Positions 3,148 through 63,800 are shown, counted from the first letter of the stretch. The stretch: DNA of 64,000 bases from a virus (IMGVR_UViG_3300009682_000003:8724-72723), one strand, 5' to 3'. The notes: a model not told the origin generated them from the letters alone. Made by a program: numbers and translations.

Positions 3148-3935
3148 GCTCGCTTGACCTCCCAACGTTCAGCGCCGAACGGCAACGAGCCGCCGGCCTT
3201 CCGCCTCAGTGCCTCTCGGGCGAGCGCGACGACGTGCTCGCGCTCCGCGTCCTCGCTCGCCCTCACCTGCACCGCCCCCTCGTAGGTGCCGATGCTGTAT
3301 CGTACGATCCAGGTCGCGACCTCCTCGACCGGCAGCCGGGCCGGGGGCGCCTGCGCCGGCAGCTCGACAGACCAGCGCTCGTGCGCGTTCCAGACCGGCG
3401 GTGTCTGCCCCTCGGCCTCGAACGCTCGGATGAGGGCGCGGCGCGCGATGCGCTGCACCTCGTCGGGCGCAGCGTCCGCAGGGGCCTGCACCTCGACCGT
3501 GCCCGAGCTGGTGGCGCCGTCCCGGGAGCACGACGTGCACTCGTAGTGGGCGCGCCAGGTGACCGCAGGACGGCGCCGTGGGCGGGGGGGCGCAACCTCG
3601 CCCACGACGCGCCTTGCGTCGCGCCAGGCGGCGCTCTCGGCCCAGCCCTGGGCCTCCAGGTATCGCGCCAGGTGGCGCACGACCTGGGGCTTGGTCGAGC
3701 CCTGCGCGCGGTGCTCGCGGGCCATGAGCCGGGCTGCCCCGATCGCCTCTTCGCGGCGCTCAACCTCCCGATCGGACTCGGCGCCGTGGTCGCTGACCAC
3801 GACCTGAAGCGAGGCCGTGACGGTGCTCGCGATCCAGGCCTCGACGGTAGAGCGGGGCGCCCTGCTCTTGCCGTACAGTCCCCCGATGGCCCTGAGCTGC
3901 TCGTCGTCCAGCTCGAACGTCATGCGGACCTTCAC
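3144..3935 (-). CDS. Hypothetical multi-domain protein
   Basis: GTG start coupled to the upstream stop (GTGA); internal HYECTSC motif. Confidence 0.7.
   Translation of the reverse strand: MKVRMTFELDDEQLRAIGGLYGKSRAPRSTVEAWIASTVTASLQVVVSDHGAESDREVERREEAIGAARLMAREHRAQGSTKPQVVRHLARYLEAQGWAESAAWRDARRVVGEVAPPRPRRRPAVTWRAHYECTSCSRDGATSSGTVEVQAPADAAPDEVQRIARRALIRAFEAEGQTPPVWNAHERWSVELPAQAPPARLPVEEVATWIVRYSIGTYEGAVQVRASEDAEREHVVALAREALRRKAGGSLPFGAERWEVKRA
3296..3311 (+). repeat. 16-bp near-palindrome copy A (TGTATCGTACGATCCA)
   Basis: Read directly; one of six copies. Confidence 0.85.
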
Positions 3936-4639
3936 GGCTCGCCCCCTTCCCCGTCGCCCTCGCCGTCGTCCTCGCTGACCATGTGCTCCTCGCAGTCGCC
4001 GCACATGAGTCGCGCGTCAGGCTTGGCCCAGGCGTTGGCCTGGCAGCCCGGGCAGGTGTACTTCACCTTGCTCTTGCGCCTCGCGCCGCTCCCGCCGCTG
4101 AGCGCCCCCTCGACGCAGGTGAACGGCAGCAGCCAGTCAGCCGGCATGGCCGCGTAGGCCTTTGCGAACGGGCCGTCCTCGATCACGTAGTGGGTCATGC
4201 GCTGACCGACGCGCGCACCGCCGGGCTCGCCCGTCGCGCTTGGCATGAGGCCGATCTGCTCCATCTTGTTCGCCCACTCGGCGTTGTGGTAGCCCGATCG
4301 GCTCGGCTTGCCGAAGTCCTGCTGCCACTGGTGCGCCATCTCGTGAACGATCGTGCTCGCGACGTCGCGCGGATCTCGCGCCGCGAGCGTCGCGGGGTTC
4401 AGGCTGATCTCGTGCAGCCTGGTCTTGCCCTTGCCGCCCTCGCCGGTCTGCGGCGTCCAGCGATCGGGGGCGAAGAAGCCGAGCACGCGGGGGCTCTTGC
4501 CGCGCGAGAAGTTGAGCATGACCGGCTGGAGCTTGCCGGCGAAGATCTGCTCGTTGAAGTAGTGCCAGATCCGCTGGAAGGCCTCGGCCTGGGTTAGCGT
4601 GGGCGCCTCGGCGGCGCGCTTGGCTTGCTGCTTGGTCAT
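3932..4639 (-). CDS. SprT-like zinc metalloprotease
   Basis: HEISLNP...IVHEMAHQWQ (HEXXH)...GYHNAEWANKM, C-terminal CxxC...CxxC; typical phage SprT layout. Confidence 0.9.
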   Translation of the reverse strand: MTKQQAKRAAEAPTLTQAEAFQRIWHYFNEQIFAGKLQPVMLNFSRGKSPRVLGFFAPDRWTPQTGEGGKGKTRLHEISLNPATLAARDPRDVASTIVHEMAHQWQQDFGKPSRSGYHNAEWANKMEQIGLMPSATGEPGGARVGQRMTHYVIEDGPFAKAYAAMPADWLLPFTCVEGALSGGSGARRKSKVKYTCPGCQANAWAKPDARLMCGDCEEHMVSEDDGEGDGEGGEP

Positions 4640-4863
4640 CGGTCCCCTCCCTCGGTTCGGAACCAGCCGCCGTTGCGGTACTCGACGAGGCCCAGCCGCT
4701 CCAACGCGCGGAGCTGCTGGCGCACGCTGGCCGGCTGCTCGTCGCCGGCCTTGCCCTCCACCAGGCGCGCGAGCGCGGCCTCGCGCCTGCGCCGAGCTGC
4801 GGCTTGCTTGTTGGCCTTGGCCTGGCGGTTCACCGCCGCGCCGATCTGCATCACGTCCTTCAT
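4636..4863 (-). CDS. Small protein with winged-helix-like C-terminus
   Basis: QQLRALERLGLVEYRNGGW pattern; coupled to neighbours. Confidence 0.65.
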   Translation of the reverse strand: MKDVMQIGAAVNRQAKANKQAAARRRREAALARLVEGKAGDEQPASVRQQLRALERLGLVEYRNGGWFRTEGGDR

Positions 4864-5243
4864 GACCGTCCCCTTTCGTCTTCGTCGAACGCCGGCTCCA
4901 GGTCGTATCCCATCGCGTCGTTGTAGGCCGCGACGCCCAGGCCCATGCCGGCCTGCATCGCGTGCTCGCGCAGGCCTTCGTCGTCGTCGTCGGGCGTCCG
5001 CGTCCAGTCGGGGTTCCGACGCAGCCGGCGGTCACCGCCCGTGCCTTCGAGCACGACCCACTCGCACGGGATCGGCTTGCCGTCTGCCCACCGAGGGGGC
5101 GACGCGAACACGGCCTCGGCCTCCGCGAGCGTGGCGTACTCGTCGCCCGTGATGCAGTCGTCGTTGCCCTCGTCCGGGTGGCTCTGGAAGTAGAGCACCG
5201 CGTACGGCTTGTCCTGCCACACTTCGATCTTGACTTTGGCCAT
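4860..5243 (-). CDS. Hypothetical acidic protein
   Basis: GAGGTG SD; TGATG overlap with the upstream gene. Confidence 0.75.
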   Translation of the reverse strand: MAKVKIEVWQDKPYAVLYFQSHPDEGNDDCITGDEYATLAEAEAVFASPPRWADGKPIPCEWVVLEGTGGDRRLRRNPDWTRTPDDDDEGLREHAMQAGMGLGVAAYNDAMGYDLEPAFDEDERGRS

Positions 5244-5502
5244 CACTTCACCTCTTCAAAGATTTCTAGGAACCGACTGGGGCTCGTGTATTGCTCGTTG
5301 ACGCGCGGGGCGACCTCGAAGCGCCCGCGCCCGAGGTAGGTGCCGCGCTTGAACAGCGGCTCGGTGTAGCGGTAGACGACGATCGGAGCGCCGCCGATCG
5401 TGTGATCGATCCGCAGTACGAGGCAGAACCGCTGCACGCCTTGCACGAGGCGGCGACGCTTCCACCGCGTGCCGGGCTCGATCCTGGCCATCACTTCACC
5501 TC
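5237..5502. repeat. 18-bp direct repeat pair (5237-5254, 5485-5502) bracketing one gene
   Basis: TGGCCATCACTTCACCTC twice; on the minus strand GAGGTGAAGTGATGGCCA = SD + stop + start. Confidence 0.85.
5243..5491 (-). CDS. Hypothetical basic protein
   Basis: MARIEPGTRWKRRR...; flanked by the 18-bp repeats. Confidence 0.7.
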   Translation of the reverse strand: MARIEPGTRWKRRRLVQGVQRFCLVLRIDHTIGGAPIVVYRYTEPLFKRGTYLGRGRFEVAPRVNEQYTSPSRFLEIFEEVK

Positions 5503-5730
5503 CTTCGCGTCCTTGGCGGTGATGCGGTCGAGGTTGAGCTGCCAGGCCGTCACGCGGCCCATGCCGGCAGGGAGCGTGATGCGCAACACGTCGCTCGCGC
5601 GAAGCAACCGCGCCAGCGCCTGCTACTCGTCGGCGGCAGGGATCTCGATCTCGACGCGCAGGTGTGCGCAGTCGTGTCGGTGACCGGGTCGTTCGGTGAT
5701 GTTTCCGAGGGTGAACTTGTATGTGGGCAT
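5491..5730 (-). pseudogene. 79-codon gene interrupted by one in-frame TAG (5623-5625)
   Basis: AGGAGG SD, ATG 5730, MPTYKFTLGN...IPAADE*QALARLLRASD...AKEVK, TGA overlapping the next ATG. Confidence 0.6.
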
Positions 5731-5824
5731 GCTGTCCTCCTGCGCTGGTGCGCGTCACACGGGCCTGACGTGGCCCGGCTGCTGCCCCCCACCGCTCGGG
5801 TCGAGGGGCAGCCGCCGAGCGGCG

Positions 5825-6748
5825 TCACAGCCCCGTGGCCTCGCGCACGGCGCGAACAACCCCGGCTGCGACCGGCGGGCACACCGCGTTGCCGATGCCC
5901 AGCACGGCGTCAGCACGGCTGCTGCGCGGCCACTGGTAGCTGTCGTCAAAGCCCATGGCCCGCGCGTACTCGCGGATCGTCAGCGGGCGGTACTTCGAGC
6001 CCCGCACGACGGCCCACTGGTCCTTGGTCGTGATGGTGCGGATCGGCTCGTGCACCGGGACGCCGGGGTGACCCGTGACGTGCTGCACCAGGCAGTCGCG
6101 GCCCGAGCGAGCCTGAGCGGACCTGATGCGAGCCTGCGCCCCGGGCGACGCCGCCGTGATGGGGCGCCAGCCGGGCGCCTTGGGGTCGAGGTGCGGCCAG
6201 AACGCCGGCTCGGGCACCTCGGGGTCCGCGAGGCGCAAGCGGCCAGCAGCGCTCCCCCTGAGCCCAACAATGAACAGGCGCGTTCGGCGCTGCGGCACGC
6301 CCCAGCGGCTCGCGGTCAGCAGGTGTTCCGTCAGCGTGTAGCCGAGGGCTGCGAGGGCCTGGCACCACACGTTGAACAGGCGCCACTGCTTGAACGAGGG
6401 GACGTTCTCCACCACGAGGGCGGCGGGCTCGGTCGCGTCGGCGCAGTCCACCACGGCCCAGGCCGTGGAGCGTAGCTCGTCGTGGTAGCGCCTGCGCGCC
6501 GGCTGGCTCGCCGTCGAGTGTCCCTGGCAGGCCGGCGACGCCAGCAGCACGTCGAACTCGGGCAGCGAGCCCCAGTCGGCCTGGCGCACGTCCTGGCAGG
6601 CGTGCATCGTGTTCGGGTGGTTGGAGGCGTGGGCCTCGACAGCCAGCGGCCAGTGGTTCGCGGCCCAGAGCACCTGGGCTCCAGCGGCGAGCGCCCCCGA
6701 GGTGAACCCACCCCAGCCGGCGAACAAGTCGATACAACGAACGGTCAT
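5825..6748 (-). CDS. dcm: DNA cytosine-5 methyltransferase
   Basis: Motif I DLFAGWGG, catalytic SPACQGHS, ENV, QRRTRLF, C-terminal GNAVCP. Confidence 0.95.
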   Translation of the reverse strand: MTVRCIDLFAGWGGFTSGALAAGAQVLWAANHWPLAVEAHASNHPNTMHACQDVRQADWGSLPEFDVLLASPACQGHSTASQPARRRYHDELRSTAWAVVDCADATEPAALVVENVPSFKQWRLFNVWCQALAALGYTLTEHLLTASRWGVPQRRTRLFIVGLRGSAAGRLRLADPEVPEPAFWPHLDPKAPGWRPITAASPGAQARIRSAQARSGRDCLVQHVTGHPGVPVHEPIRTITTKDQWAVVRGSKYRPLTIREYARAMGFDDSYQWPRSSRADAVLGIGNAVCPPVAAGVVRAVREATGL

Positions 6749-7052: not shown

Positions 7053-7661
7053 TCACCGTGCGTCGTACGATACACGGAGCAGGTGCGGGTCGAGCTGTTC
7101 GTCGGTCCACCCGCCCACGGTCGCCCAGCGGTCCCCGAGAGCCACCCGAGCAGCCGAGGCGCGCAGGCCCCGCCAGCAGGCGCCCCCTGCGTACGCTGCA
7201 AGACGGTGCAGGTGCGGGTTAGACCTGCACTGGCCGTACGAGCTGCGAAGCACCGTCAGGCCCACCGCGGCGCACTTGCGTGGGTCGTCCAGCAGCTCTG
7301 GCCCGGTCCACCCGCGGGTGTAGGTGTTCGCGGTCCCTCGCTTCCCGAGGTTGATCTGCATGTAGCACCAGCTCCGTCCGCCGTCGTTCCACCCCACTTT
7401 GGCTAGGCGCGCGCGCTCGGCCCCCGTGGCAAGGACGATCTCGCTCCAGCCCGACTCGTACTTGCTCACGGCGAGCATGAGCGCGGCTGTCCGCTTGCGG
7501 GCGTTCGGCCCCTGGAACACGGGCGCCTCGTCGGGGTTGTACGCTGCCCAGGCGACAGCGCCGGCCCACTGCTCGTACCTGGCTCGGGCGTCGTCGTCCT
7601 GCGGGGGCACCGCGGAGGTCATGAGCCCGAGCAACCATGCTGCGACTGTTGTTAGATCCAT
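7053..7661 (-). CDS. Lysozyme/lytic-transglycosylase-fold protein, putative endolysin
   Basis: KYESG catalytic Glu context, CYMQIN, hydrophobic N-terminus; downstream of holin-like genes. Confidence 0.65.
   Translation of the reverse strand: MDLTTVAAWLLGLMTSAVPPQDDDARARYEQWAGAVAWAAYNPDEAPVFQGPNARKRTAALMLAVSKYESGWSEIVLATGAERARLAKVGWNDGGRSWCYMQINLGKRGTANTYTRGWTGPELLDDPRKCAAVGLTVLRSSYGQCRSNPHLHRLAAYAGGACWRGLRASAARVALGDRWATVGGWTDEQLDPHLLRVSYDAR
7059..7074 (-). repeat. 16-bp near-palindrome copy B (TGCGTCGTACGATACA on +)
   Basis: Read directly; in the last codons of the endolysin gene. Confidence 0.85.
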
Positions 7662-7740
7662 GCGCGGGTCGTACAGCCGGCGCGATCAGGGCGCAACCCG
7701 CGGTGGACGACTCGACGACCCGGAATTTCGATCCCAGGGG

Positions 7741-8508: not shown

Positions 8509-8527
8509 GCCACCAAGTTACCACCGC

Positions 8528-9919: not shown

Positions 9920-9926
9920 TGTGCGC

Positions 9927-17047: not shown

Positions 17048-17659
17048 TCACACTCCCGAGCCAATAACGCGATCCTCTTGGGAACCGCGGTGAAGGATAC
17101 CCGCAAGGGCGAGAAGGAAGCCACCGAACACGCTGATCGCGATCATCCAGTTGGCGACGTTCACTCCCTGCGCTGCTGGCTTTGCATCGTACGATACATG
17201 GCGCGGTTCGGGCACCCCCGGCAGCACGCCGCTTTGAGCTCCCTGGTCGAGAGCGGCCCGCTGCGCGTTGTAAATTGGGTCGTAGTAGACGAACGAGGGG
17301 CAGCAGTCGCCTGCCCTGTCCGCGCCGGGCTCGCACGGCCTGGTGGGGTCGCCGTCCTGCCAAGGCAGAGTGCCCTTCGACAACCACCTCACTGCGTTTG
17401 CCCGGTTCGAGTCGTTCGACCTGGCGTACCACCAGGCGAAGCACGCCAGCTCGCGCCAGTCGATCGAGTCGCACGCGCCGCCTTGCATGGTCGCGGCGGC
17501 TCCGGGGAACCAGCCGGCAGCTCGGCACACGTCGAGCAGCCGCTGCGCCTCGATCTCCCAGGCGACCACGCCAGCGCGGCGAAGCTCGCGCGCAAGCACG
17601 CGGTCCACTGCGGTCCACAGCGGCGCGTCGAACGTGATCGCCTGGCAGGGGAAGGGCAT
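17048..17659 (-). CDS. C-terminally membrane-anchored Cys/Trp-rich protein
   Basis: C-terminal WMIAISVFGGFLLALAGIL TM. Confidence 0.75.
   Translation of the reverse strand: MPFPCQAITFDAPLWTAVDRVLARELRRAGVVAWEIEAQRLLDVCRAAGWFPGAAATMQGGACDSIDWRELACFAWWYARSNDSNRANAVRWLSKGTLPWQDGDPTRPCEPGADRAGDCCPSFVYYDPIYNAQRAALDQGAQSGVLPGVPEPRHVSYDAKPAAQGVNVANWMIAISVFGGFLLALAGILHRGSQEDRVIGSGV
17183..17198 (-). repeat. 16-bp near-palindrome copy C (TGCATCGTACGATACA on +)
   Basis: Read directly. Confidence 0.9.
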
Positions 17660-33633: not shown

Positions 33634-35595
33634 TCAGCCAATGTTGCCGAGGAGTGACGCGAGCGAGCCCACCATTTGCTGCGCTGCCGCTTGCTGCTGC
33701 GCGGTGGGTTGCTGCGGTGGCGGTTGCTGGGGGGGGGGTTGCTGAAACTGCGGAGCCGGGGGCCTCTGCTGCTGCGGGGGGACGACTCCAGAGGTGTTCA
33801 CTTGCGGGATCGCGCGAAGCAACGGAGCGACGTTGCTCACGTACTGGCGAAGCTCGTTGTACCGCTGGTTTGTCTCTTGGAGCTGCGCGACGAGCTGGCG
33901 CGTCTGCTCGCCCTCCGCAGCCTCGGCTTGCTTCTTCATGAACTCGGCGTAGCCCTTCAGCGCGCCGAAGATATTGTCCATGTTCAGGCCGAGCTGGTCG
34001 ACCAGCCCCATGGGCTTCTTGGTGACCGGGTCTATCGCGGTGCGCCACCCGTTGCGCTCGATGATGGCCGACTCGTCGCCCTCTTTCGCCGCCGAGGCGT
34101 TCTGCTGCTGCTGCGGCTCGATCTCGCGCATCATGTTGCGCAGGTTCATGACGAGCGACAGCGCCTGCTGCGCCGCCTCGACCGGGCCTGGCGGCGGCTG
34201 CGCCGGCTGCTGAGCTTGCTGCTGCGGCTGCGCCGGCTGCGCCGGCTGTTGCGGCTGCGGTGGCTGTTGCGACCACTGCTGCTGAACCCACTGTTGCTGC
34301 TGCCACGGGGGGAGCTGGAAAACCCAAGGCGGGATCTGTTGCACCCACGGTGGGAGCTGCATGGTCTGCTGCTGTGGGAACGGCTGCCCGATCTGCCCTT
34401 GCTGCCAGGGGGGCTGGCCCCACTGCCCTTGCTGTTGCTGCCAGGGGGGCTGGCCCCACTGCCCTTGCTGTTGCTGCCACGACTGCTGGGGCGCGCCGAA
34501 CCCTGGCTGCGGCTGCTGGGCCGCTGCCCTAGCTTGCGCTTGCGCGGACTCCAACACCGAGGAGATCCGGTCCTCCAAGTCGTCGAGCTTCGCGCGCAGC
34601 ATTTCGGCCTCTGGGTTGGGCGGCGGCGGCGGCGGCGGCGCTTGTGCAACCCCAGCCGCAGTAGGCTGCGCCGGGTGTTCGGAGGCCTGGGAGCTGCGCT
34701 TCGCGACGTCCGCCACCTGCTGTGCGAGCTGCCACATTTGCCACTGAAGCAACGTCCACTGCTCTCGCTCTTGCGCAGACTGTTGGGCAGGCGGCTGTCC
34801 CCACCCGCCTTGCCCCCACTGCTGCGGAAACTGCTGCGGCGGGAACTGCTGCGGCGGGAACTGCTGGGCCTGCGGCTGGCTCGGCGTCGGGACCGGCGGC
34901 TGAGCAGGCGCCGGGGCCGGGGGTGGTGGCTCGGGAGCTGCTGGCGCGGGCGCCGCAATATCCCGCGCGTAGCTCGCCAGCTTCTGTGTATCGTACGATG
35001 CAGGCCAGGGCTGGTGCATCCACGGGGGCATTCCGTTTCCGCCTTGTGCCCAGGGTGGCGGCTGCATCCAGGGCGGCATCTGTGCCCACCACGGTGGCTG
35101 CTGCTGCTGCTGCTGCGGCTGTTCCTGCCTCGTCGGTTCCTGTCGGGGAGGTTCGCCCATCATTCGCTCCTTCCAGCGGCGCTGCGCCTCGGGGTTCGCG
35201 GCCTTGACGATCTGGTCCTGCGCTCGAACGATGATGGGGCCGTCGTGGATCTTCCACTCGAAACTTGCTTCCTCGCCGTTCCAGTACCGCTCTTCGATAT
35301 GCCGCGTTAGGTCGTCGTACTGGGGCACCGCCGCGAGCGGCAGGCTGAAGCAATGCGCCTCGATCGGCCTCACCTGCGTGACAACTACCTTGAGCGCGCC
35401 GCCGTAGGCGCGCATCACTGGGTTGTATCGCATCGCTCCGCGGTTCTTCCACGACACGCGCGGCTTGCCGGCTTGCTTCTGAGCGATCACCGACGCGGCG
35501 ATCTCGCTCTCGCGCTTGGAGTCTTCGTCGAAGTACTCGGGCGTGTCCTGCTCGTCCTGCACCTCGTCGTCTTCGTCGTCGTCACGCTTCGCCAT
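33634..35595 (-). CDS. Gln/Pro/Trp-rich low-complexity protein (653 aa)
   Basis: GAGGTT SD; globular N-terminus, Q/P/G/W repeats, helical C-terminus. Confidence 0.85.
   Translation of the reverse strand: MAKRDDDEDDEVQDEQDTPEYFDEDSKRESEIAASVIAQKQAGKPRVSWKNRGAMRYNPVMRAYGGALKVVVTQVRPIEAHCFSLPLAAVPQYDDLTRHIEERYWNGEEASFEWKIHDGPIIVRAQDQIVKAANPEAQRRWKERMMGEPPRQEPTRQEQPQQQQQQPPWWAQMPPWMQPPPWAQGGNGMPPWMHQPWPASYDTQKLASYARDIAAPAPAAPEPPPPAPAPAQPPVPTPSQPQAQQFPPQQFPPQQFPQQWGQGGWGQPPAQQSAQEREQWTLLQWQMWQLAQQVADVAKRSSQASEHPAQPTAAGVAQAPPPPPPPNPEAEMLRAKLDDLEDRISSVLESAQAQARAAAQQPQPGFGAPQQSWQQQQGQWGQPPWQQQQGQWGQPPWQQGQIGQPFPQQQTMQLPPWVQQIPPWVFQLPPWQQQQWVQQQWSQQPPQPQQPAQPAQPQQQAQQPAQPPPGPVEAAQQALSLVMNLRNMMREIEPQQQQNASAAKEGDESAIIERNGWRTAIDPVTKKPMGLVDQLGLNMDNIFGALKGYAEFMKKQAEAAEGEQTRQLVAQLQETNQRYNELRQYVSNVAPLLRAIPQVNTSGVVPPQQQRPPAPQFQQPPPQQPPPQQPTAQQQAAAQQMVGSLASLLGNIG
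34399..34470. repeat. 36-bp tandem repeat x2 encoding QQGQWGQPPWQQ
   Basis: TTGCTGCCAGGGGGGCTGGCCCCACTGCCCTTGCTG twice. Confidence 0.85.
34987..35002 (+). repeat. 16-bp near-palindrome copy D (TGTATCGTACGATGCA)
   Basis: Read directly; exact reverse complement of copies C and F. Confidence 0.9.
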
Positions 35596-35961: not shown

Positions 35962-36250
35962 GACGTTGTCTCCTCCTCGCGACCTCGCCCAAGACGTGGA
36001 GGCCGAACTCAGCCGCCTTGCCCCAGTCGATGTTCAGGCCGCGTCCAGCTCGTAGCATGGCCGAGATCGCGCTCGCGAGCGATTCCGGCACGACCTCGTT
36101 GTCCTCGGCGTTCGCGACCGGGCTCACCCTTTTCGCTTGGATTTGCACTTCCCAGGCGTCTGTGACGCCGCGCCTAGCAGCGACGACAAGGTACACATCG
36201 TGCCCGGGTAGTGCGCGCTCGATGGCTCGCCAGAATCCTTTGCTCCGCAT
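35954..36250 (-). CDS. Hypothetical protein
   Basis: MRSKGFWRAIER...; overlaps the next gene. Confidence 0.65.
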   Translation of the reverse strand: MRSKGFWRAIERALPGHDVYLVVAARRGVTDAWEVQIQAKRVSPVANAEDNEVVPESLASAISAMLRAGRGLNIDWGKAAEFGLHVLGEVARRRQRHG

Positions 36251-36930: not shown

Positions 36931-38019
36931 TTACTCCCCGATGGCGCTCGCTCCCGACCACATTGCGGCCAGGTCTTCCGGGCTGGCGAACTGTTCTTGC
37001 CTCTCGCGGGGCTTGCGACGCTGGACGCGGAACGGAGTGCCTAGCTCGGTGAGCGTCGTGTTGGCGGTCCACAGGCACCAGCCGGTCTGGGCGACGAATC
37101 CCTCGCGCTTCGCCAGCTTGCGCAACCAGAAGTCGATCACCTTCGACCTCACCTCGTCCTGAGCACTCTCCCCAAGCGACTTTTCCTGCACCTCGACCCG
37201 AGCAAGGTCGTCGGCTCGCAGCCACAGGGTGAGCGCGGCCTGGAGGTCGCGCTGCGTGTGGACGTAGTGCTTGCCGTGCACCTCGATGAAGATCTCGTCG
37301 TACTTGGCAAGCACGCTCTCGACCATCTCCCTTTCCAGAGCCTGGAAAGAGGGAGTGCGCGGAGCGCGATCCTTCATCTCTTCATTGGATCTCTTCCTTA
37401 AAGAGGTGGCCAGTGCAGGAATTTTCACCTCCCTCCTGAAGTCTGGATCAGGTGGGGTGGTTTTTGACCCACGGTCAACCGAGGGGGTAACTTGCCGTTT
37501 TTTGTTGGTGTTTCGCTTGCCGCGACCCTCTTGCAGGTGGCACCTGAAGTCTGCTTCAGGTGGTTGCGCGTTCAGGTGCTTGCGGGTTTTAGCAACGAAT
37601 CCGGTCGGTTCGGTCCCCGTTGGCTCGAGCGGAACCTCGGTCGGGCCGCTGCCGGCGCCGTCCAGGTTGGCGTCGCCTGGCTCGCTCGGGAGCGGCCCGC
37701 TGTGCATCCACTCGTGCTCCAAGAAGTAGTACAGGCTCGACCTGCCCTCGGCCTTGCGGTCCACCACCTCGATGAGCCCAGCCTCGCGCAGCTTGCGGAT
37801 CGACGCGAAGATGGTGCGCTCGCTCACGGCTAGGTCGTCGGCCAGACGAGCCACCGAAGGGTAGGCGTAGCCGTGCCGACCGGCGTACTGGCAGAGCCTG
37901 GCGTACAGGATCTTCTCGTTTGGTGTAAGCTCTGGCTTTGACAGCAGCCAATTTGGGAGGAACGCTCCCGTCCAGAGCCGATACGGATTGATTGCCCCGC
38001 GGGGCGCTTGCCTCGACAT
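36931..38019 (-). CDS. Replication initiator with N-terminal winged HTH
   Basis: LTPNEKILYARL...AYPSVARLADDLAVSERTI...LREAGLI; GAAGGGG SD. Confidence 0.85.
   Translation of the reverse strand: MSRQAPRGAINPYRLWTGAFLPNWLLSKPELTPNEKILYARLCQYAGRHGYAYPSVARLADDLAVSERTIFASIRKLREAGLIEVVDRKAEGRSSLYYFLEHEWMHSGPLPSEPGDANLDGAGSGPTEVPLEPTGTEPTGFVAKTRKHLNAQPPEADFRCHLQEGRGKRNTNKKRQVTPSVDRGSKTTPPDPDFRREVKIPALATSLRKRSNEEMKDRAPRTPSFQALEREMVESVLAKYDEIFIEVHGKHYVHTQRDLQAALTLWLRADDLARVEVQEKSLGESAQDEVRSKVIDFWLRKLAKREGFVAQTGWCLWTANTTLTELGTPFRVQRRKPRERQEQFASPEDLAAMWSGASAIGE
37435..37563. promoter_or_regulatory. Candidate replication origin inside rep
   Basis: CCTGAAGTCTGGATCAGGTGG (37435) and CCTGAAGTCTGCTTCAGGTGG (37543) flank a T-rich stretch. 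Confidence 0.6.
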
Positions 38020-39151: not shown

Positions 39152-39406
39152 CTACCCCTCGCTGGGTGCGTTACTCAAGGGCACATAGGCGTCTCGCACC
39201 CTGGACGGCCAACGCTCGGACACGTCCGCGGACAGGCCGAGCCTGCGAACGGCCCTAAGCAGCGTGGTCTTGTGGACGCCCAGGCGCTGGGCGGCTGCGC
39301 TCGTGTTGCCTTGGCACTCTTCGTAGGCCCGCAGGATCTCCCGTCGCGCCTCGTCGTCGTCGCGCCCCCTCGACAGCGTGTTGTAGCCCGACCGCTTGGC
39401 TGCCAT
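39152..39406 (-). CDS. Fis-type HTH regulator
   Basis: CQGNTSAAAQRLGVHKTTLLR. Confidence 0.8.
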   Translation of the reverse strand: MAAKRSGYNTLSRGRDDDEARREILRAYEECQGNTSAAAQRLGVHKTTLLRAVRRLGLSADVSERWPSRVRDAYVPLSNAPSEG

Positions 39407-45277: not shown

Positions 45278-45763
45278 CTACGTGTACTCAATGAGGCCTG
45301 CGCGTTCCAACCGACGCAGCACGAGCGTCGTGTCGAAGCAGCTAAGCCCGGTTCGCTGGGCGATTGCGCCTTTCGAGGTCGCTCCCGCCCTGATCGCGTC
45401 GAGCACGGCCTCGTTCTCGTGGCGCGTGACCGCCATTTGCTGCCAGTGCGGCATCTTCGACCGCTCGGCCTGGGTAGGCCACTTGCGATCCTCGCGCAGC
45501 TCCCACACCTCCTCGACGTCCTCGAAGTAGCCGGGGTCTTCGGCTCTCGCTCCGAACTGAAACGTGAGCGGCACCATGCGTCCGCGATGGGGCCACGCTT
45601 GCCCGGGGTACCACGCGCCGACCGTGCCATCGGCGGTGTCGTACCATACGACGACGAGCGCCTCAGAGCTTGGGTGCTCCCAGTATTTGCGCCCGCCGAC
45701 AGCGCCGAGGTCGGCGCGCGATCGCGACTCGAAGTCGAGTAGCACCGGGGCGACGTGCGTCAT
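45278..45763 (-). CDS. Chimeric ORF: phage PolA exonuclease N-terminal fragment fused to a wHTH tail
   Basis: LLDFESRSRADLGAVGGRKYWEHPS resembles the start of phage family-A polymerases; only about 60 aa of it is present. Confidence 0.6.
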   Translation of the reverse strand: MTHVAPVLLDFESRSRADLGAVGGRKYWEHPSSEALVVVWYDTADGTVGAWYPGQAWPHRGRMVPLTFQFGARAEDPGYFEDVEEVWELREDRKWPTQAERSKMPHWQQMAVTRHENEAVLDAIRAGATSKGAIAQRTGLSCFDTTLVLRRLERAGLIEYT

Positions 45764-46942
45764 GGCTGCGCCTCGGCAATGCGCGCACGCGCGATCGCTA
45801 CGTACTCGGGGTTGAGCTCGGCGCCGATGAAATCGCGCCCCTGTTGCAGCGCGGCAAGCGCGGTAGTGCCTGCGCCGGTGAACGGGTCGAGCACCACGCC
45901 GCCGGATTTGCATCCGGCGCGCACGCACAGCGACGCGAGCGTGATCGGCATCATCGCGAAGTGGGCGCATCTGGATGGGCGCGGGTTGAAGTGCCAAACG
46001 GAGCGGAGATTGGCGCCCGCGTCGGGGTCAGACTTGAAACCAACGCCGACCACGTGCAGCGACCCGTCGTTGCGCCCGCTGCTACGCGAATAGTCTTGCG
46101 CGCGCCCCTCGTTTTTTGCTGTATCGTATGCACGCGCTTGCGCGGGATGCAAACGCGCTTCCCGCACCGCATCCACGTCGTACCAGTACCGCGGCGATTT
46201 CGTCATTAGGAACACGTATTCATGCGCCTTCGTCGGGCGATCGCGCACGCTCTCAGGCATGCACGATCCGGCGCGCGTATCGCCGCTAAAGCCCTTTGCC
46301 CAAATGATATCCGCCCGCAGGTACCACCCAGCGGATTGGAGCGCGAACGCCACGCGCCATGGGATGCCTACGAGGTCTTTGGGTTTGAGATCGCCGAAGT
46401 CCTTGAACGCGGATAGCACTGTTCGACTCGCGGAAGGGTGCAGCGATCGCGGCCCAAGCACGCCTCTTCGGCCGTCCCTACTTTGCTGCGGTCCGCTTAC
46501 TTTCAGCCCGCTAGTTGATGCGTAGCTATCCCCCAGATTCAGCCAAAGCGTGCCGTCGTCGGCGAGCACGCGATGCACTTCGGAGAATACCGCTACGAGC
46601 CGCGCAACGTACTCGTCCGGCGTAGTCTCGATCCCGATTTGCCCCGCGACGCCGTAGTCGCGTAGGCCCCAATAGGGTGGTGACGTGACGCAGCATGCGA
46701 TCGATTCGTCCGGCAGCGCGCGCAGCACGTCGAGTGCATCGCCCTGCACGATCAACGCTTCGGCTGTCATAGCGCACCCCCGCGCAGCGCGCCCGCTAAC
46801 AGTCTCGCGCACACGACCGCTAGCGCCATCACGCGCGCTCCGTCGTGAGCGAGTATTGCCCGACGGCGGGCCCCCTTAGCGGCATCACGGTCGCGATCAT
46901 GTCCGGCGCGCTCGAGCTAGTAACGATCGCGGGGTCTTCGGC
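45532..46942. mobile_element. Methyltransferase-carrying insertion bounded by a 13-bp direct repeat
   Basis: CGGGGTCTTCGGC at 45532-45544 and 46930-46942, both encoding in-frame AEDP. Confidence 0.55.
45760..46770 (-). CDS. DNA amino-methyltransferase (N4-C/N6-A, beta class)
   Basis: TSPPYWG, WLNLGDSY, IIWAK, HEYVFL, HFAM, VLDPFTGAGTT; visibly more AT-rich codons. Confidence 0.95.
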   Translation of the reverse strand: MTAEALIVQGDALDVLRALPDESIACCVTSPPYWGLRDYGVAGQIGIETTPDEYVARLVAVFSEVHRVLADDGTLWLNLGDSYASTSGLKVSGPQQSRDGRRGVLGPRSLHPSASRTVLSAFKDFGDLKPKDLVGIPWRVAFALQSAGWYLRADIIWAKGFSGDTRAGSCMPESVRDRPTKAHEYVFLMTKSPRYWYDVDAVREARLHPAQARAYDTAKNEGRAQDYSRSSGRNDGSLHVVGVGFKSDPDAGANLRSVWHFNPRPSRCAHFAMMPITLASLCVRAGCKSGGVVLDPFTGAGTTALAALQQGRDFIGAELNPEYVAIARARIAEAQP

Positions 46943-47220: not shown

Positions 47221-47466
47221 ATGCGTGGAGAGCACGAGGCCAGGGCGCGCGAAGCAGGCCCTGTTTGTGGCGAAGACGGGTGCATGGTCGCGCAGTGCAT
47301 CCTCGCGATCCGCAACCTGGCGGACGAGGTCGCCAGGCTAAACCAAATCGTCGCGAGGCTTCAGCCGAGCCGCCTGAACGCGATCCGCGAGGCGAGCTGG
47401 GCCACCGCTGGCGCCATGGTGACGCTTGCCGCCGCGACGTGGTGGTATCTCCAGGTCGTGCGCTAG
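47221..47466 (+). CDS. Small coiled-coil protein with C-terminal TM
   Basis: LAIRNLADEVARLNQIV; hydrophobic tail. Confidence 0.55.
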   Translation: MRGEHEARAREAGPVCGEDGCMVAQCILAIRNLADEVARLNQIVARLQPSRLNAIREASWATAGAMVTLAAATWWYLQVVR

Positions 47467-48425
47467 CCCGACACGCAGCCGTCTTGGATCGCCTCGTCGT
47501 CGAACAGGTCGCAGAATGCGGGAGCGTCCGACTCTTCGAGGAACCCGGCGTACTTGCTCCCTTTGCCAGCGGCGTCAGCCTTGCGCACGCGCTTGATCCA
47601 CTCGCTCATGCTCCCAGGCCTGCACCGCGTAGGCTTGCGCCAGAGGCCGTCAATGCTGCGTGTCTTCGCCGGGTCGGCGTTGCGCTCCATGGCCACGATG
47701 CGGTCGGCCAGGTCGGGGTAGTTGCGAACCAGCCAGGTGATCTCGTGGGGCTTGGAGGCGGGGCAGTAGAAGCAGGCGCTCTTGACGGGGACGCGCAAGC
47801 CGCTGCTCGCGATCTCGGCCTTGCACTGCTCGCGGTCCCAGCCCCACTCGCGAAGCGGATACCAGTACACGTACCGATCGTCGTCTGCGATCTTGCTTCG
47901 CCTTGCGTCCGCCGGCCCCGCGTCGTATCCGATCACTTTGATGCACCTACCGCCGGCATCCCAGGTTTCGAGCGCAGGCCTCCATCCGGCGACGTAGTCG
48001 TTCTGCGGGTCGCGCTTCCACTTGAGCGAGCACCCCTTGCGACCGTAAGCCAGGCTCGGCAGGTCGCGCTGCGCCAGGCACTGGCCTTCCAGCGACGTGT
48101 AGGGCCGGTTGGCGAACTGCCCACGGCCAGGCCCGGGGTAGCAAACGGTCGTGGGCAGGGGAAAGCCTACCGCCTTGCAGAACCTGCCGATCTCGTTCGC
48201 GTAGGCGTAGGTGTCAGGCTTTTCGTCGCCCGTGTCCGCAAACAGGATCATGTCGGGCCGGATGCCCATGCGCGCGAACTCGACGAGCACCGCCGTGCTG
48301 TCCACGCCCATGCCGTACGCCACGATGAGGGGGACCGGGAAGTAGTGCTCCTTGAGCGCGACTTCGCTCGGGTACGGGGGCTTGCACGAGATCACTCGTG
48401 CGTCTCGCTGGGCTCGCGTTGCCAT
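47463..48425 (-). CDS. PP-loop / PAPS-reductase-like protein
   Basis: AYGMGVDST, FADTG, CSLKWK, IGYDA, YPLREWGWDR, KSACFYCP. Confidence 0.85.
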   Translation of the reverse strand: MATRAQRDARVISCKPPYPSEVALKEHYFPVPLIVAYGMGVDSTAVLVEFARMGIRPDMILFADTGDEKPDTYAYANEIGRFCKAVGFPLPTTVCYPGPGRGQFANRPYTSLEGQCLAQRDLPSLAYGRKGCSLKWKRDPQNDYVAGWRPALETWDAGGRCIKVIGYDAGPADARRSKIADDDRYVYWYPLREWGWDREQCKAEIASSGLRVPVKSACFYCPASKPHEITWLVRNYPDLADRIVAMERNADPAKTRSIDGLWRKPTRCRPGSMSEWIKRVRKADAAGKGSKYAGFLEESDAPAFCDLFDDEAIQDGCVSG

Positions 48426-56097: not shown

Positions 56098-56381
56098 CCC
56101 GCACCCCCGCAGCCCCCTGGAGGCAAGGGCACGACGTTGTCGTTGGGCTCGTCGTGAAACAGCTCTGGGTAGCGAAACGACATTTGGTGGAGCATTTCGT
56201 CTGCCACGAGGGCGGCAGCGTGGACGGCCTCCACTGTCCAGGCCTTCAGCTTGATCTCCGCGACTTGGTCGGGTGGGTCGGAGCGGTCGCGTTCGTACTG
56301 CACCACCAAGCCGTGCATGGCAGCCGCCGCGAAGCTCGCCCACATGGCCGCGTCCATCTCGGTAGAGAATTGCTCGCTCAT
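56094..56381 (-). CDS. Hypothetical protein
   Basis: FAAAAMHGLV...ADEML motif common in phage small proteins. Confidence 0.7.
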   Translation of the reverse strand: MSEQFSTEMDAAMWASFAAAAMHGLVVQYERDRSDPPDQVAEIKLKAWTVEAVHAAALVADEMLHQMSFRYPELFHDEPNDNVVPLPPGGCGGAG

Positions 56382-56806
56382 TGCCCCACCCTTTCCTTCA
56401 TTGCGGTGACGAACGTGTCCATCGCCTCGTCCACCTTGTCGTCCGTTACCTCCAGCAGATCGCGCGCCCAGCCCTTTGTCGCCCAGGCTTCCTTGCGCGC
56501 GAACGCCAGGTCGCGATGCGCCGCCAAGTACATGCCGAAGGCCTCGCACCAGTCCTCGGTTGCCCGGCCAAGCGCCATGAGCCGGTCGTCGAGGTTGCGC
56601 TCGGCCATGACTTCGAGCCCCGCGACGATTGCGTCGCCCAGGCGCACGGTTTCGCGCTCCCCTCGCTCGAGCTCCCTGTCGCTGACGTTGCCGGATTCGG
56701 CGCGAAGCAAGCGCCGAAGCTCGACCATGGCGCGGAACCCGCGCTGCATGGTCTGCATGAGTACGATGGCCCCGAGGGCCGCTGCGCCGACGTTCTCCAT
56801 GTTCAT
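56378..56806 (-). CDS. Hypothetical helical protein, first gene of the leftward operon
   Basis: AAGGGG SD. Confidence 0.65.
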   Translation of the reverse strand: MNMENVGAAALGAIVLMQTMQRGFRAMVELRRLLRAESGNVSDRELERGERETVRLGDAIVAGLEVMAERNLDDRLMALGRATEDWCEAFGMYLAAHRDLAFARKEAWATKGWARDLLEVTDDKVDEAMDTFVTAMKERVGQ

Positions 56807-56990: not shown

Positions 56991-57006
56991 TGTAGCGTAC
57001 GAAACA
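56991..57006 (+). repeat. 16-bp near-palindrome copy E (TGTAGCGTACGAAACA), intergenic
   Basis: Two mismatches to TGTATCGTACGATACA; followed by CGG like copies B and F. Confidence 0.7.
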
Positions 57007-57029
57007 CGGCTGCCGTCCGCGACGTAGCT

Positions 57030-57055
57030 TGTCCGATCAGTTACGTTATCGGACA
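57030..57055. promoter_or_regulatory. Operator-like inverted repeat
   Basis: TGTCCGAT-N10-ATCGGACA in the divergent intergenic region. Confidence 0.55.
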
Positions 57056-57077
57056 CGCTGACAATGTAGCTTGCCGG

Positions 57078-57106: not shown

Positions 57107-57113
57107 AGGCTGC

Positions 57114-57395
57114 ATGGTGGAGCAACGAGACGACTGCGGCATGCTGGCGGGGGACAAGGTCGTTTGGTCGCATGTGCCGCGTGGCGGGTACGGCTACGTG
57201 GTGCCGGTGATGGCAACGTTCGTCCGGCGCACGTCAATCGAACGCGCAACAATCCGCGTGAGCAAGCGGGACGGCACTGTCGTGTGTCGCTCGGTGTTGC
57301 TGAGCAACCTGCACAAGCCGAAGCGCAAGGGTGGCGGCGTGCTTGGTTACGAGTGGGCAGAACTGGGCATCACGCGCGACGGGCGCATTGCCTGA
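57114..57395 (+). CDS. Hypothetical protein
   Basis: GDKVVWSHVPRGGYGY motif. Confidence 0.6.
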   Translation: MVEQRDDCGMLAGDKVVWSHVPRGGYGYVVPVMATFVRRTSIERATIRVSKRDGTVVCRSVLLSNLHKPKRKGGGVLGYEWAELGITRDGRIA

Positions 57396-57416
57396 GCGCT
57401 AACAAGCGGAGGGAGC

Positions 57417-57617
57417 ATGGGACGCACACGCAAGGTCGACGCGCACACCGAACGGCTGATCGCTGTGAAGGCGTGCGTGGACCCAAGGACCGTCAGGCGA
57501 TTCCTGGCCGGCAAGACCATGCGGTCGACGACCGCCGCCGTCGTCCGAACCGCGCTGGTCGACCTGGGCATGGCCCACCTTCTGATCCACGCCGAGCAAG
57601 GGGGGGGCGATGGCTGA
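57417..57617 (+). CDS. Small HTH regulator (Cro/LacI-like)
   Basis: LIAVKACVDPRTVRRFLAG; GGAGGGAG SD. Confidence 0.75.
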   Translation: MGRTRKVDAHTERLIAVKACVDPRTVRRFLAGKTMRSTTAAVVRTALVDLGMAHLLIHAEQGGGDG

Positions 57618-60231: not shown

Positions 60232-60434
60232 GCACCGAGCGAGAGCGTGAGCTTGAGGCCGCGCTGCGCGACCTGGAGGAGCGCTTGGAGCGGGCGAGCC
60301 TCGCCTGGCTTGCGTTCGAGGGAGGACGGGACGCAAACGGCATGAGGCTGCTCCACGACGCTGTGTTCGTCGCACCGCCGACCGACTTCGTCGAGGTGCT
60401 CTGGAACCGGAGGGAACATGGCAAGTCAGCTTGA
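60228..60434 (+). CDS. Small hypothetical protein
   Basis: GTGA coupling. Confidence 0.6.
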   Translation: MSTERERELEAALRDLEERLERASLAWLAFEGGRDANGMRLLHDAVFVAPPTDFVEVLWNRREHGKSA

Positions 60435-61397: not shown

Positions 61398-61714
61398 TGG
61401 GTCTTGAACTCGAACAGGGGGAGGCAGTCATGGACGAAATCAAAGTGAGCGACGAGGTCAGCTTGCAACCGATTGGCCCGCCACTGCGGGCGCCGTGGTG
61501 GCTCAGGGCGGCTGTGGGCGAAGAGGTCGTCCCCGTCGTGGCGCTGCACCTTGCTGAAAGGTGCGAGGTCAACGAGGGAGGCAAGAAGTGCCGCATGGGC
61601 GTCGCGATGACGGGCTGGATCGTCTGGCAGGGCGAGATCGTCCTCGCGCACGACGTCGAGGGGTTCAAGGGGTTCGGCTACGCGCAAGGCGACGAGAAGG
61701 GAAGGGAGCCGTGA
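61397..61714 (+). CDS. Hypothetical protein
   Basis: TGATG coupling. Confidence 0.6.
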   Translation: MGLELEQGEAVMDEIKVSDEVSLQPIGPPLRAPWWLRAAVGEEVVPVVALHLAERCEVNEGGKKCRMGVAMTGWIVWQGEIVLAHDVEGFKGFGYAQGDEKGREP

Positions 61715-62280
61715 TGACGCGCGAGGGATGGGAGCGCGACGCGCTCGACGAGCCCGAGCCCGTCTGGGAGCACATGCTCCGCACCGCGGGCGGTGCCTAC
61801 GTGAACCCGCTGGAGCTCCAGCCGCAGGACGTAGCGATCGAGGACGTGGCGCGGGCGTTGAGTCACTTGTGCAGGTTCGGGGGGCACGTCCCGGTGTTCT
61901 ATTCGGTGGCTCAGCACAGCGTGATCGTGAGCTGCAACGTTGGGCCAGACAACGCACTGTGGGGCCTGCTGCATGACGGGGGCGAGGCGTACATGCTCGA
62001 CATGCCGCGCCCGATCAAGGTTCAGCCGGCGATGCGCGAGTACAGGGCCGCGGAGGCGCGGGCAATGCGCGCCGTGGCCCACGCTTTCGGCCTGGTCTTG
62101 CCGCAACCGCTGGAGGTCACGATCGCTGACCAGCGCGCGCTTGCGACTGAGGATCGAGACGTGCGCCGCTTGGCGCGGGTCGAGTGTACGGTCGCGCCCT
62201 TCGACGAGGTGATCAAGCCCATGCCTCCAGACGAGGCGATGAGGGTTTTTCTGCAACGGTTCGACGAACTGACGAGGTGA
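61714..62280 (+). CDS. HD-domain phosphohydrolase (5'-deoxynucleotidase-like)
   Basis: IEDVARALSHLCRFGGH, YSVAQHS, LLHDGGEAYMLDMPRPIK. Confidence 0.9.
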   Translation: MTREGWERDALDEPEPVWEHMLRTAGGAYVNPLELQPQDVAIEDVARALSHLCRFGGHVPVFYSVAQHSVIVSCNVGPDNALWGLLHDGGEAYMLDMPRPIKVQPAMREYRAAEARAMRAVAHAFGLVLPQPLEVTIADQRALATEDRDVRRLARVECTVAPFDEVIKPMPPDEAMRVFLQRFDELTR

Positions 62281-62283
62281 GGC

Positions 62284-62523
62284 ATGAGCAACGCGAGCAA
62301 CAACGTGAGCCTTCGCCTGGAGCCCGATGTGATCCAGGCGGTGGACGAAATGGTGGAAGCGCTGAGCCGCAAGTGGGGCTACGGCGCAAACGTCACGCGA
62401 GCAGGCGTGATCCGCATGGCGGTCGTGCGCGGCTTGCCCGAAATGAAACGGACCCTTCTCGGTGACGCCGCCGCGGCGCACAATGCAGAAGCCGCGCAGG
62501 CGGCGACGGAGGACCAGCCATGA
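62284..62523 (+). CDS. Ribbon-helix-helix (CopG/Arc-like) regulator
   Basis: VSLRLEPDVIQAVD...TRAGVIRMAV. Confidence 0.75.
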   Translation: MSNASNNVSLRLEPDVIQAVDEMVEALSRKWGYGANVTRAGVIRMAVVRGLPEMKRTLLGDAAAAHNAEAAQAATEDQP

Positions 62524-62795
62524 TGGGTATGGGCGACTTCGAGGTGGCGATCCGCAGCCTTGAAATGATCATCGAGGAGATCAACGCGGCGCCGCCGGGA
62601 ACGGCCCAGGCTGTCGTCGTCCAGCAGCTCTTGGCGAGCGGTCGCATGAGCAACGCGCTCGGTCTGCTCGCGGAAGCCGTGCGCAAAAGCCCGCTTCCCG
62701 CCGAGGCCGAAATGAAGATCCAGCGCGTGCTCGACGAGACGCGCCGTGCCGAGCAGCTCACAGCCGATCTTCCCCCCTACAAGGTCAACGGCTAG
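62520..62795 (+). CDS. Hypothetical protein
   Basis: GGAGG SD; coupled. Confidence 0.65.
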   Translation: MMGMGDFEVAIRSLEMIIEEINAAPPGTAQAVVVQQLLASGRMSNALGLLAEAVRKSPLPAEAEMKIQRVLDETRRAEQLTADLPPYKVNG

Positions 62796-62998
62796 ACGCC
62801 GAGAGTCGGTGTAACGCGGTCGAGCGCCGCCGCAGCGCTGGCCCACCGGGAGGCCACGCGCGAGTCGCCGGCCTGGTCGAGCACGAACTCACCCTTGGCG
62901 CTCGCGATTGCGGCGAGGGCCTCGGTGACGCCCCGCAAATCGTACTTGTCCACGAGCCCTTCGAGAGCCGCGTAGTCCTCTGCGTCGAGGCGGACCAT
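62792..62998 (-). CDS. Small helical protein
   Basis: AAGGAG SD; converges on the rightward operon. Confidence 0.65.
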   Translation of the reverse strand: MVRLDAEDYAALEGLVDKYDLRGVTEALAAIASAKGEFVLDQAGDSRVASRWASAAAALDRVTPTLGV

Positions 62999-63267
62999 TA
63001 GACTTGCTCCTTCGGCGGCTTTTCCCGCGTGAGGTAGTGCACGACGACGCCGGCAATGATCACGGGCGTTGCTCCCAGCAGCACCGCCCATACGATGTCG
63101 CCAGCGCTTCGCTCCTCTTTCGGGGCCGGCTGCTGTCCTACCGACACGCCGACGCTGACTGGAGGGACAAACTGCTGCCAGCAGTCGGGCCAGGGCTGGC
63201 ACGGCGGCGGAAGCTCGGGAAGCTGCCCCACCCCGCACGACCAGTCGCTTGCTGCGGCGCGAATCAT
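62998..63267 (-). CDS. Small membrane-anchored protein with a CxPWPxC half-module
   Basis: PCQPWPDCWQQ; TM IVWAVLLGATPVIIAGVVV. Confidence 0.7.
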   Translation of the reverse strand: MIRAAASDWSCGVGQLPELPPPCQPWPDCWQQFVPPVSVGVSVGQQPAPKEERSAGDIVWAVLLGATPVIIAGVVVHYLTREKPPKEQV

Positions 63268-63341
63268 GAGGACAGCGTATCGCCCGGTCGCGCCTTTCCG
63301 CAAGCGTTGTGCTCGAGCCAGCGACGGTGCACGATCGCTGC

Positions 63342-63782
63342 ATGGCCGAACAGCAAAGCAAGCTAGGCTACGTCGCCATCGCCACGGCCCTGATCACGTC
63401 GGTGCCGGCCCTGGTCACGTCGATCGCCGCATTCCGCAGGCCGGCGGACACGGCCCCCGCCAAGGCCGTGTACGAGCAGCTCGCAAAGGACGTGCGGGAG
63501 CTTAGCGACCAGAACCGACGCAACCACGAGGATCTCGTGGCGATGCGAAACTACCTCGACGGCTACCTGCGCGGGACGCGCAAGCCTCGCGTCAGGCCAG
63601 ACAAGGACGGCGACGGAATCCCCGAGGCCGACGCGGGCGCGCCCACTCCCAAGGCGACGGGGAAGGGTTCCGGTGGTGGGAACACGGACGCGGTCGAGCT
63701 GTCGCCGCCGGCCCCTCCGCCGCCGAGGCTCAGCCCAGCGCCGGCTCCGGTCGCGCCTCCCGGCGTCGAAGACCTGTTCTGA
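63342..63782 (+). CDS. N-terminal TM + coiled-coil + Pro-rich protein
   Basis: TTGTGC-N17-CACGAT-N6-ATG; TM then heptads. Confidence 0.7.
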   Translation: MAEQQSKLGYVAIATALITSVPALVTSIAAFRRPADTAPAKAVYEQLAKDVRELSDQNRRNHEDLVAMRNYLDGYLRGTRKPRVRPDKDGDGIPEADAGAPTPKATGKGSGGGNTDAVELSPPAPPPPRLSPAPAPVAPPGVEDLF

Positions 63783-63784
63783 TC

Positions 63785-63800
63785 TGCATCGTACGATACA
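63785..63800 (-). repeat. 16-bp near-palindrome copy F (TGCATCGTACGATACA on +)
   Basis: Read directly; 2 nt after a stop codon at a convergence point. Confidence 0.9.

Follow-up and report, generated by a model that had tools for sequence, protein, structure and literature searches.

The virus contig IMGVR_UViG_3300009682_000003 carries seven dispersed copies of a 16-bp near-palindromic DNA word together with a gene for a SprT-like zinc metalloprotease, and the relation between the two is the subject of this analysis. The contig is a single record of 72,723 bp, rated 96% complete by CheckV and classed as linear. The analysed stretch of 64,000 nucleotides (the window) corresponds to its bases 8724-72723, and positions refer to the window unless the contig is named. 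Genes were called from codon log-odds, yielding 116 genes that cover 93% of the contig. A first-pass annotation had reported six copies of the word, three of them identical, with one in a divergent control region and another just past a stop. A pattern search recovered all six, including the two in these particular settings (Table 1). The exact form, TGYATCGTACGATRCA, occurs at 17183, 34987 and 63785 and is one word once strand is allowed for. Relative to it, the copies at 3296 and 7059 carry one mismatch and the copy at 56991 carries two. The search of the full contig that had been recommended added a seventh copy, TGCGTCGTACGAAACA, at contig position 4060.

Table 1. Copies of the 16-bp word and the SprT-like gene in the window.
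Feature	Position	Strand	Context
Motif copy TGTATCGTACGATCCA	3296-3311		Within a 263-residue gene, 3144-3935 (-), next after the SprT-like gene; read WIVRYS; codons GTA (3%) and CGA (9%)
SprT-like zinc metalloprotease gene, proposed reader	3932-4639	-	235 residues; HEMAH; C-terminal CxxC...CxxC zinc ribbon
Motif copy TGCGTCGTACGATACA	7059-7074		Last codons (VSYDAR-stop) of an SLT-like gene, 7053-7622 (-)
Motif copy TGCATCGTACGATACA	17183-17198		Gene 17048-17659 (-), linker preceding a C-terminal membrane anchor; read VSYDAK
Motif copy TGTATCGTACGATGCA	34987-35002		Pro/Gln-rich linker of gene 33634-35595 (-); read ASYDTQ
Motif copy TGTAGCGTACGAAACA, weakest	56991-57006		Divergent intergenic gap of 307 nt between genes 56378-56806 (-) and 57114-57395 (+)
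Motif copy TGCATCGTACGATACA	63785-63800		Begins 2 nt past the stop codon of gene 63309-63782 (+), where the final, repeat-bearing 200 nt of the contig open

The copies follow the form TGYATCG-TA-CGATRCA within the frame TG-N4-G-NN-C-N4-CA and are spaced 4-22 kb apart. None of the seven is a perfect palindrome. Five retain one perfect half, TGTATCGT, and the copies at contig 4060 and window 56991 depart from it in both halves. A third-order Markov model of the contig predicts 3e-5 exact copies and 0.003 copies at no more than two mismatches. An exact match never arose in dinucleotide-preserving shuffles, and six matches at three or fewer mismatches were not attained in any of 100 shuffles. The core TCGTACGA is similarly concentrated, with six of its seven occurrences in the contig falling within a motif copy. 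The trinucleotide C(G/A)G, described earlier as following several copies, does so at three and fails at the others, in a sequence with a background GC (guanine plus cytosine) content of 67%.

The word is real and is maintained by selection acting on DNA. Four of the copies are internal to genes and a fifth falls within the final six codons of one; the remaining two lie in the divergent gap and directly after a stop. Three of seven are hence non-genic or at the very end of a gene, against 7% of non-coding sequence in the contig. The coding copies (FRTTQ at contig 4060; the others as in Table 1) use all three reading frames, and the three of the type xSYDx share one frame. The codons that spell the word are ones the virus avoids, such as GTA (3% of valine codons, used three times), CGT (5% of arginine codons, used twice) and ACA (5%). 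Further rare codons in the coding copies are CAT and CCT (9% each) as well as GAT and GCA (11% each). The best syntenic relative, L267, has a capsid protein 55% identical to that of the virus, and its homologues of two copy-bearing structural genes align only outside the stretch occupied by the word. The linker holding the 17183 copy has no alignment with its homologue there. Such a pattern indicates that, in this lineage, the copies were written into tolerant linkers and tails. The word and its 8-mer core were not found in 21 kb of the 52-kb record of L267. A single-protein scan gave no close relatives for a test of synonymous sites, L267 being only 37-55% identical. The mixed frames had already been taken as a sign of DNA-level selection, and that view is borne out by the frames, the rare codons and the unconserved linkers and tails together. 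Selection on DNA also explains why structural genes of the virus contain such codons and encode odd peptide stretches (VSYDA).

The SprT-like gene overlaps the gene preceding it and sits in a long leftward gene run. This run is opened by a C5 methyltransferase gene (5825-6748) and is separated from the 7059 copy by a 305-nt gap; the nearest copy downstream of the SprT-like gene is the one at 3296, within the next gene. In a Pfam search of the contig, the SprT-like protein matches PF10263 above the Pfam cut-off (45 bits, E-value 4e-13). Residues H99, E100 and H103 of its active site are invariant in an alignment with homologues. The C-terminal tail, KxKYxCPxCxxNxWxKP...CxxC, forms a lysine-rich zinc ribbon, which aligns with 22 homologues and is near-invariant in proteins only 35-45% identical. 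The AlphaFold model (predicted local distance difference test score 82) has its closest fold in the core of human SPRTN (6MDW/6MDX; Foldseek probability 0.97, E-value 0.013). SPRTN also ranked first in a profile search of PDB sequences (E-value 0.006), and the tail was matched to zinc ribbons. SPRTN is a protease activated by DNA binding, and it binds DNA by structure, not by sequence.

Across mobile elements, the word recurs beside homologues of this gene. The exact pattern was found at 64 loci in IMG/VR, a count close to a rough chance estimate for such a collection, and at at least 120 loci in a scan of 185,579 species genomes. Among the matches listed, 184 word-bearing loci (64 viral and 120 from genomes) were picked by the exact 16-mer only. 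A tblastn comparison of the 116 predicted virus proteins with these loci gave a single recurrent match, the SprT-like protein. Its homologues stand beside the word at 30 of the 64 viral and 36 of the 120 genome loci (66 of the 184 listed), with E-values from 1e-26 to 1e-57. The carriers include metagenome-assembled genome (MAG) or isolate contigs of Pseudomonadota (several classes), Acidobacteriota, Planctomycetota, Nitrospirota, Bacteroidota, Spirochaetota, Campylobacterota and Thermodesulfobacteriota. Conjugative Pseudomonas plasmids of the MOBF/MPF_T type also carry the pair, and the GC content of the loci ranges from 31% to 68%.

The word holds a recurrent position with respect to the gene. 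At about 37 loci its centre lies between -22 and +28 nt of the SprT-like start-equivalent, defined as the position of the first residue, and a flanking T and A lengthen the word to 18 bp. Several independent loci have a TTGACA-like -35 element 17 nt before the TACGAT of the word, which covers the -10 element and the start site. In about 27 IMG/VR loci with 58% GC, the word lies over or beside a sigma-70-type promoter, 20-25 nt upstream of a start codon. Alternative layouts place it between a separate promoter and ribosome-binding site or on both flanks of the promoter (L024). Complete 41-kb proviruses bearing the SprT-like gene (G003/L040, G004 and G005) contain a second copy about 25 kb from the first. 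In G003 (L040 1326), this second copy lies at the integrase end just past a terminator-like hairpin, where the integrase gene and a leftward operon converge.

Two further features of these loci were observed. In one provirus group (GC 0.58), made up of L005, L007, L032, L047, L056 and about 20 further IMG/VR loci, a CRP-like site, TGTGCTCGCCGTCACA, precedes the word, centred 29 nt before TACGAT at the position of a class II activator. The map of L047 places this site unit between the terminase gene and a large gene, maybe encoding the portal, and across the group the unit drives differing small open reading frames (ORFs) ahead of the SprT-like gene. Separately, some SprT-like proteins begin with MY(R/S)TIQ, by the annotated start in L284 (Sporomusa plasmid pSSP59, 574) and by the starts called here in L027, L046, L079, L132, L142 and L153. 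These starts are probably set too early, with the TG of the ATG opening the 16-mer and the first residues being the operator read as protein.

The association was also approached from the side of the gene. When 80 IMG/VR loci were selected solely for SprT-like homology with a 23-sequence profile, 38 proved to have the word at no more than two mismatches within -800 to +60 of the gene. Variants in the same frame were found among the remaining loci, including TGTTTCG-TA-CGAAACA, TCGTTCG-TA-CGAACGA and TGTAAAG-TA-CCTTACA. Families were clustered from all ORFs of at least 40 residues (E-value 1e-3) within 2.5 kb of the word at 36 diverse loci. The SprT-like family was present at all 36, and no other family at more than three; the larger leftover clusters are shadow frames of the SprT-like gene. 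The SprT-like gene and the word are both missing from two distant virus relatives, 72 kb and 33 kb long, whose capsid proteins are 33-35% identical. In the tree of SprT-like proteins, the TATCG half-site type is spread throughout and variants are sporadic, with TATTG arising at least twice. This distribution is compatible with co-evolution of protein and half-site and is no proof of it. The virus itself has the palindrome frame and the zinc-ribbon SprT-like gene of the module, and it lacks a site close upstream of that gene, at a distance of at most about 100 nt or one small ORF. On these comparisons, the word very probably belongs to a module with the SprT-like gene.

The plasmid homologue of the gene is mpr, with 31-38% identity in IncN (pKM101/R46) and IncU (RA3) plasmids. 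Homologues occur on 2,618 of 72,556 PLSDB plasmids, 84% of them conjugative, and include IncN, IncU, IncC and IncX backbones with clinical resistance genes. Papers on RA3 describe mpr as a putative zinc metallopeptidase of unassigned function (PMC7414963, PMC7783346). IncN plasmids have TGTATTG-CA/CG-CAATACA about 32 nt upstream of the mpr start, and the same is seen in Burkholderia pKJ006. RA3 and Xanthomonas pIXO-704 have TGGATTG-NN-CAATCCA before the mpr homologue, twice in the case of RA3 (TGGATTG-TG-CAATCCA). These two TGGATTGTGCAATCCA-type palindromes of RA3 (L283, NC_010919, 1560-1640, minus strand) lie at about -77 and -35 from the mpr start, and no paper was found giving them. The plasmid variants change both halves symmetrically. 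One-sided variants are also frequent, such as TGCATCG..CGATACA, ..CGAAACA and ..CGATTCA. On Pseudomonas plasmids, one copy of the word lies inside an stbA-like gene and two copies flank stbB-stbC. In the literature, no paper was found with the word, with its IncN or RA3 variants or with a SprT-like gene tied to a DNA site; only unrelated primers and RA3 parS primers matched.

We suggest that the word is a protein-binding site, with a binder that is probably encoded by the element itself. The site would be read as double-stranded DNA by a symmetric dimer. The most probable reader would be the SprT-like (Mpr-type) zinc metalloprotease of the element, acting via its conserved basic zinc-ribbon tail. 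Judged from the comparative sequence data, the chances that this protein is the reader are evenly balanced. An identical 16-bp word stands beside the gene from Campylobacterota to Acidobacteriota, over a divergence of more than one substitution per site of the protein, and a DNA target of the protein is predicted from this. Most elements have one copy over the -10 element and start site just ahead of the SprT-like gene, where an autoregulatory operator would be expected. The seven copies of the virus are spread over the divergent early control region (one), gene-run boundaries (two) and tolerant parts of genes (four). We give an even chance to the view that the seven copies are operator or docking sites of a widespread gene-plus-site module of mobile elements, a module found described in no paper. 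The protein would then sit about every 10 kb and might act as a local repressor, as a roadblock or as a DNA-dependent protease placed on the viral genome. The distal copies might serve repression, transcription block or protease positioning. The earlier proposal of a site for a virus-encoded protein fits as far as selection on DNA, a binding site and a probably element-encoded binder are concerned. Its centromere-like and stoperator-like versions are not supported, and no result speaks for a packaging or condensation site, at which no direct test was aimed. The SprT-like gene was absent from its list of candidates.

A more far-reaching and rather unlikely version is that the SprT-like protein is a sequence-specific, DNA-docked protease of the SPRTN type, which lands on the 16-mers and cleaves proteins on the DNA of the element. 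Its targets could be translocating restriction or defence enzymes, silencers or covalent adducts, with the promoter copies providing feedback control of its own expression. If true, thousands of plasmids and many phages would share a hitherto undescribed class of genome-guarding or anti-defence system.

Several points weigh against the SprT-like protein as reader and against a conserved set of dispersed sites. The protein is assigned this role by association alone, and we know of no precedent for a zinc ribbon reading a 16-bp palindrome in a sequence-specific way. No copy stands directly before the SprT-like gene of the virus, the nearest one upstream being the 7059 copy at 2.4 kb, so the autoregulatory layout is missing. 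About half of the sampled SprT-like homologues are without a recognisable site within 800 nt, and many of these genes lie inside longer operons. Homologues in relatives at 37-55% identity are without the sites. Finally, a small, fast-evolving regulator could slip past the family clustering at the ORF length and E-value used.

Such a regulator is the main remaining rival, if in itself an unlikely one. The word would be the operator of a different protein, either an undetected small repressor encoded by the element or one such as ArdK in IncN, and the SprT-like gene would merely be its most constant target. Sequence-specific DNA binding by a protease is without direct support, and mpr adjoins ardK in IncN, where the ArdK product binds CUP sites (PMC6289460). 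The variable small ORFs between site and SprT-like gene in one provirus group also speak for this rival, but they are mutually unrelated. No second gene family appears at more than three of the 36 diverse loci, which argues against a shared regulator. The families shared near the site in phage and MAG loci include no ArdK, Kor or Stb homologue, although no search was aimed at these families. StbA as reader was rejected, being absent from phage and MAG loci even though an stbA-like gene holds a copy on Pseudomonas plasmids. A host regulator of the LexA, CRP or GntR type, suggested by the TGT-N10-ACA frame, was likewise rejected, since the word is found across phyla and differs from plasmid to plasmid within the same hosts. 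The occurrence of differing variants on plasmids from overlapping hosts (Enterobacterales, Pseudomonas) argues against a host factor in general.

The site might alternatively act as a single-strand hairpin, either in the 5' untranslated region of an RNA or in single-stranded DNA entering the cell, with roles in translation control, priming or as a single-stranded DNA promoter. Many loci have the site 3-30 nt upstream of a start codon, conjugative plasmids, which enter in single-stranded form, are frequent among the carriers, and pairing is kept in the symmetric variants. The stem would be only 6 bp, however, and all 16 positions are conserved, the would-be loop included. One-sided variants that break the pairing are frequent, and the central dinucleotide is non-symmetric in some variants (CA, TG). 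The virus copies moreover lie inside genes and in both orientations relative to transcription. Symmetric and one-sided variants together are better explained by two readers, each on one half-site of duplex DNA, than by an obligatory hairpin, and we consider the hairpin very unlikely.

The stoperator reading takes the copies as sites of the immunity repressor of the virus, which would be one of its helix-turn-helix (HTH), ribbon-helix-helix (RHH) or Fis-like proteins. The dispersal of the copies, the copy in the divergent control region and an HTH_8/HTH_30 protein encoded at 39152-39406 speak for it. The binders proposed in the first-pass annotation (HTH at 57417, RHH at 36124 and 62284, Fis-like at 39152 and Rep at 36931) nevertheless have no homologue in the 184 other word-bearing loci among the matches listed, and the identical word is present on plasmids and phages that are unrelated and have no homologues of these proteins. 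The control-region copy is also the weakest, and this region has a different inverted repeat of its own. Stoperators of Cluster A mycobacteriophages (L5 gp71) are asymmetric 13-mers oriented with transcription, present in 20-30 copies per genome and read by an HTH immunity repressor. The virus site is palindromic, and its asymmetric variants point both ways relative to local genes. We give this reading very low probability. The inverted repeat of the control region, AGCTTGTCCGAT / ATCGGACACGCT with a 10-nt gap (57026-57059), is flanked by two GTAGCTTG direct repeats 42 nt apart (57024-57073). This repeat probably serves as the actual operator of the early or lysogeny switch, distinct from the 16-mer, which sets the site system apart from the early-switch operator of the virus.

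Centromere or silencing sites of the ParB/KorB type (parS or OB-like) would resemble the word in size, palindromic structure and dispersal. The KorB site parS of RA3, TTTCGTACGTACGAAA (primers in PMC8124265), lies about 130 nt upstream of mpr and has the CGTACG core in common with the word, and two copies flank stbB-stbC on Pseudomonas plasmids. The symmetry centre of RA3 parS differs, though, and RA3 has its separate mpr-proximal palindromes. The first-pass annotation had recognised no ParB in the window. This holds on the whole contig (96% complete), where ParB_N (PF02195) gave no match at E<=1 while control genomes matched, and where the look-up of parAB gave no match to the ParA-type families AAA_31 (PF13614) and CbiA (PF01656). 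Across elements, the word tracks the SprT-like gene and not ParB, so that a centromere is highly improbable. Least credible is the view that a restriction-modification or DNA-modification system targets the site or causes its avoidance. GTAC and CGTACG are part of the word, and the virus carries C5 and N4/N6 methyltransferase genes and PAPS-reductase-like genes, with methyltransferase genes at 5825-6748 and 45760-46419, but CGTACG is not enriched (28 observed against 37 expected), selection spans all 16 positions and the promoter-proximal position in other elements has no methyltransferase link. An N4/N6 methyltransferase fragment common to other loci was set aside as an ordinary methylase motif and no candidate reader.

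No deposited phage matched the virus by sequence similarity, a tRNA scan of the virus found none, and the early genes were mostly without matches in PHROGs and Pfam. A circular contig was rejected, as there is no terminal repeat and the frame spanning the ends joins without sense. The last 200 nt (63772-63962) contain a pair of 32-nt direct repeats that are 75% alike (63814-63845 and 63931-63962) as well as a repeated GGGWTTCGGGGC; iterons, an attachment site or an end structure are possible readings. At the other end and outside the window, a gene for an NlpC/P60-type peptidase on the minus strand (contig 1-367, L290) runs off the left end, where the record is cut. A 310-residue protein at 47463-48395 (-) matches PAPS reductase weakly and shares 43% identity across 247 residues with a hypothetical protein (L185:11006-12097) from a Pseudomonas MOBF resistance plasmid. 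The gene for this hypothetical protein has a C5 methyltransferase gene a short way downstream. The virus and this plasmid share at least two genes, those for the 310-residue protein and the SprT-like protein.

Among known systems, Cluster A stoperators resemble the virus sites as a short word dispersed over a temperate phage genome, also within and at the ends of genes, and presumably read by one phage protein. The virus word differs in being palindromic, present in seven copies, found also on unrelated plasmids and linked to a protease-like gene. KorB OB sites (IncP/IncU) and parS are likewise 13-16 bp palindromes dispersed along a mobile element, in part at a distance from promoters or within genes. 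They need a CTPase of the ParB family, and none is encoded in the virus; parS of RA3 is in addition separate from the palindromes adjoining mpr. SPRTN is the best match to the protein by fold and sequence and, like yeast Wss1, has a SprT fold, an HExxH site and a zinc-binding domain that contacts DNA. Both are DNA-dependent metalloproteases that repair DNA-protein crosslinks. The present gene differs in being accompanied by a specific 16-bp word. In the virus protein, the zinc ribbon stands at the C-terminal end, and the similarity is weak (E-values 0.006-0.013). The mpr genes of IncN and RA3 belong to the same protein family and share the palindrome frame, with the site about 30 nt ahead of mpr. 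Their half-sites are TATTG or GATTG instead of TATCG, with one or two promoter copies as opposed to seven dispersed ones. What is new with this virus is a GC-rich genome in which the seven copies are dispersed and none is promoter-proximal.

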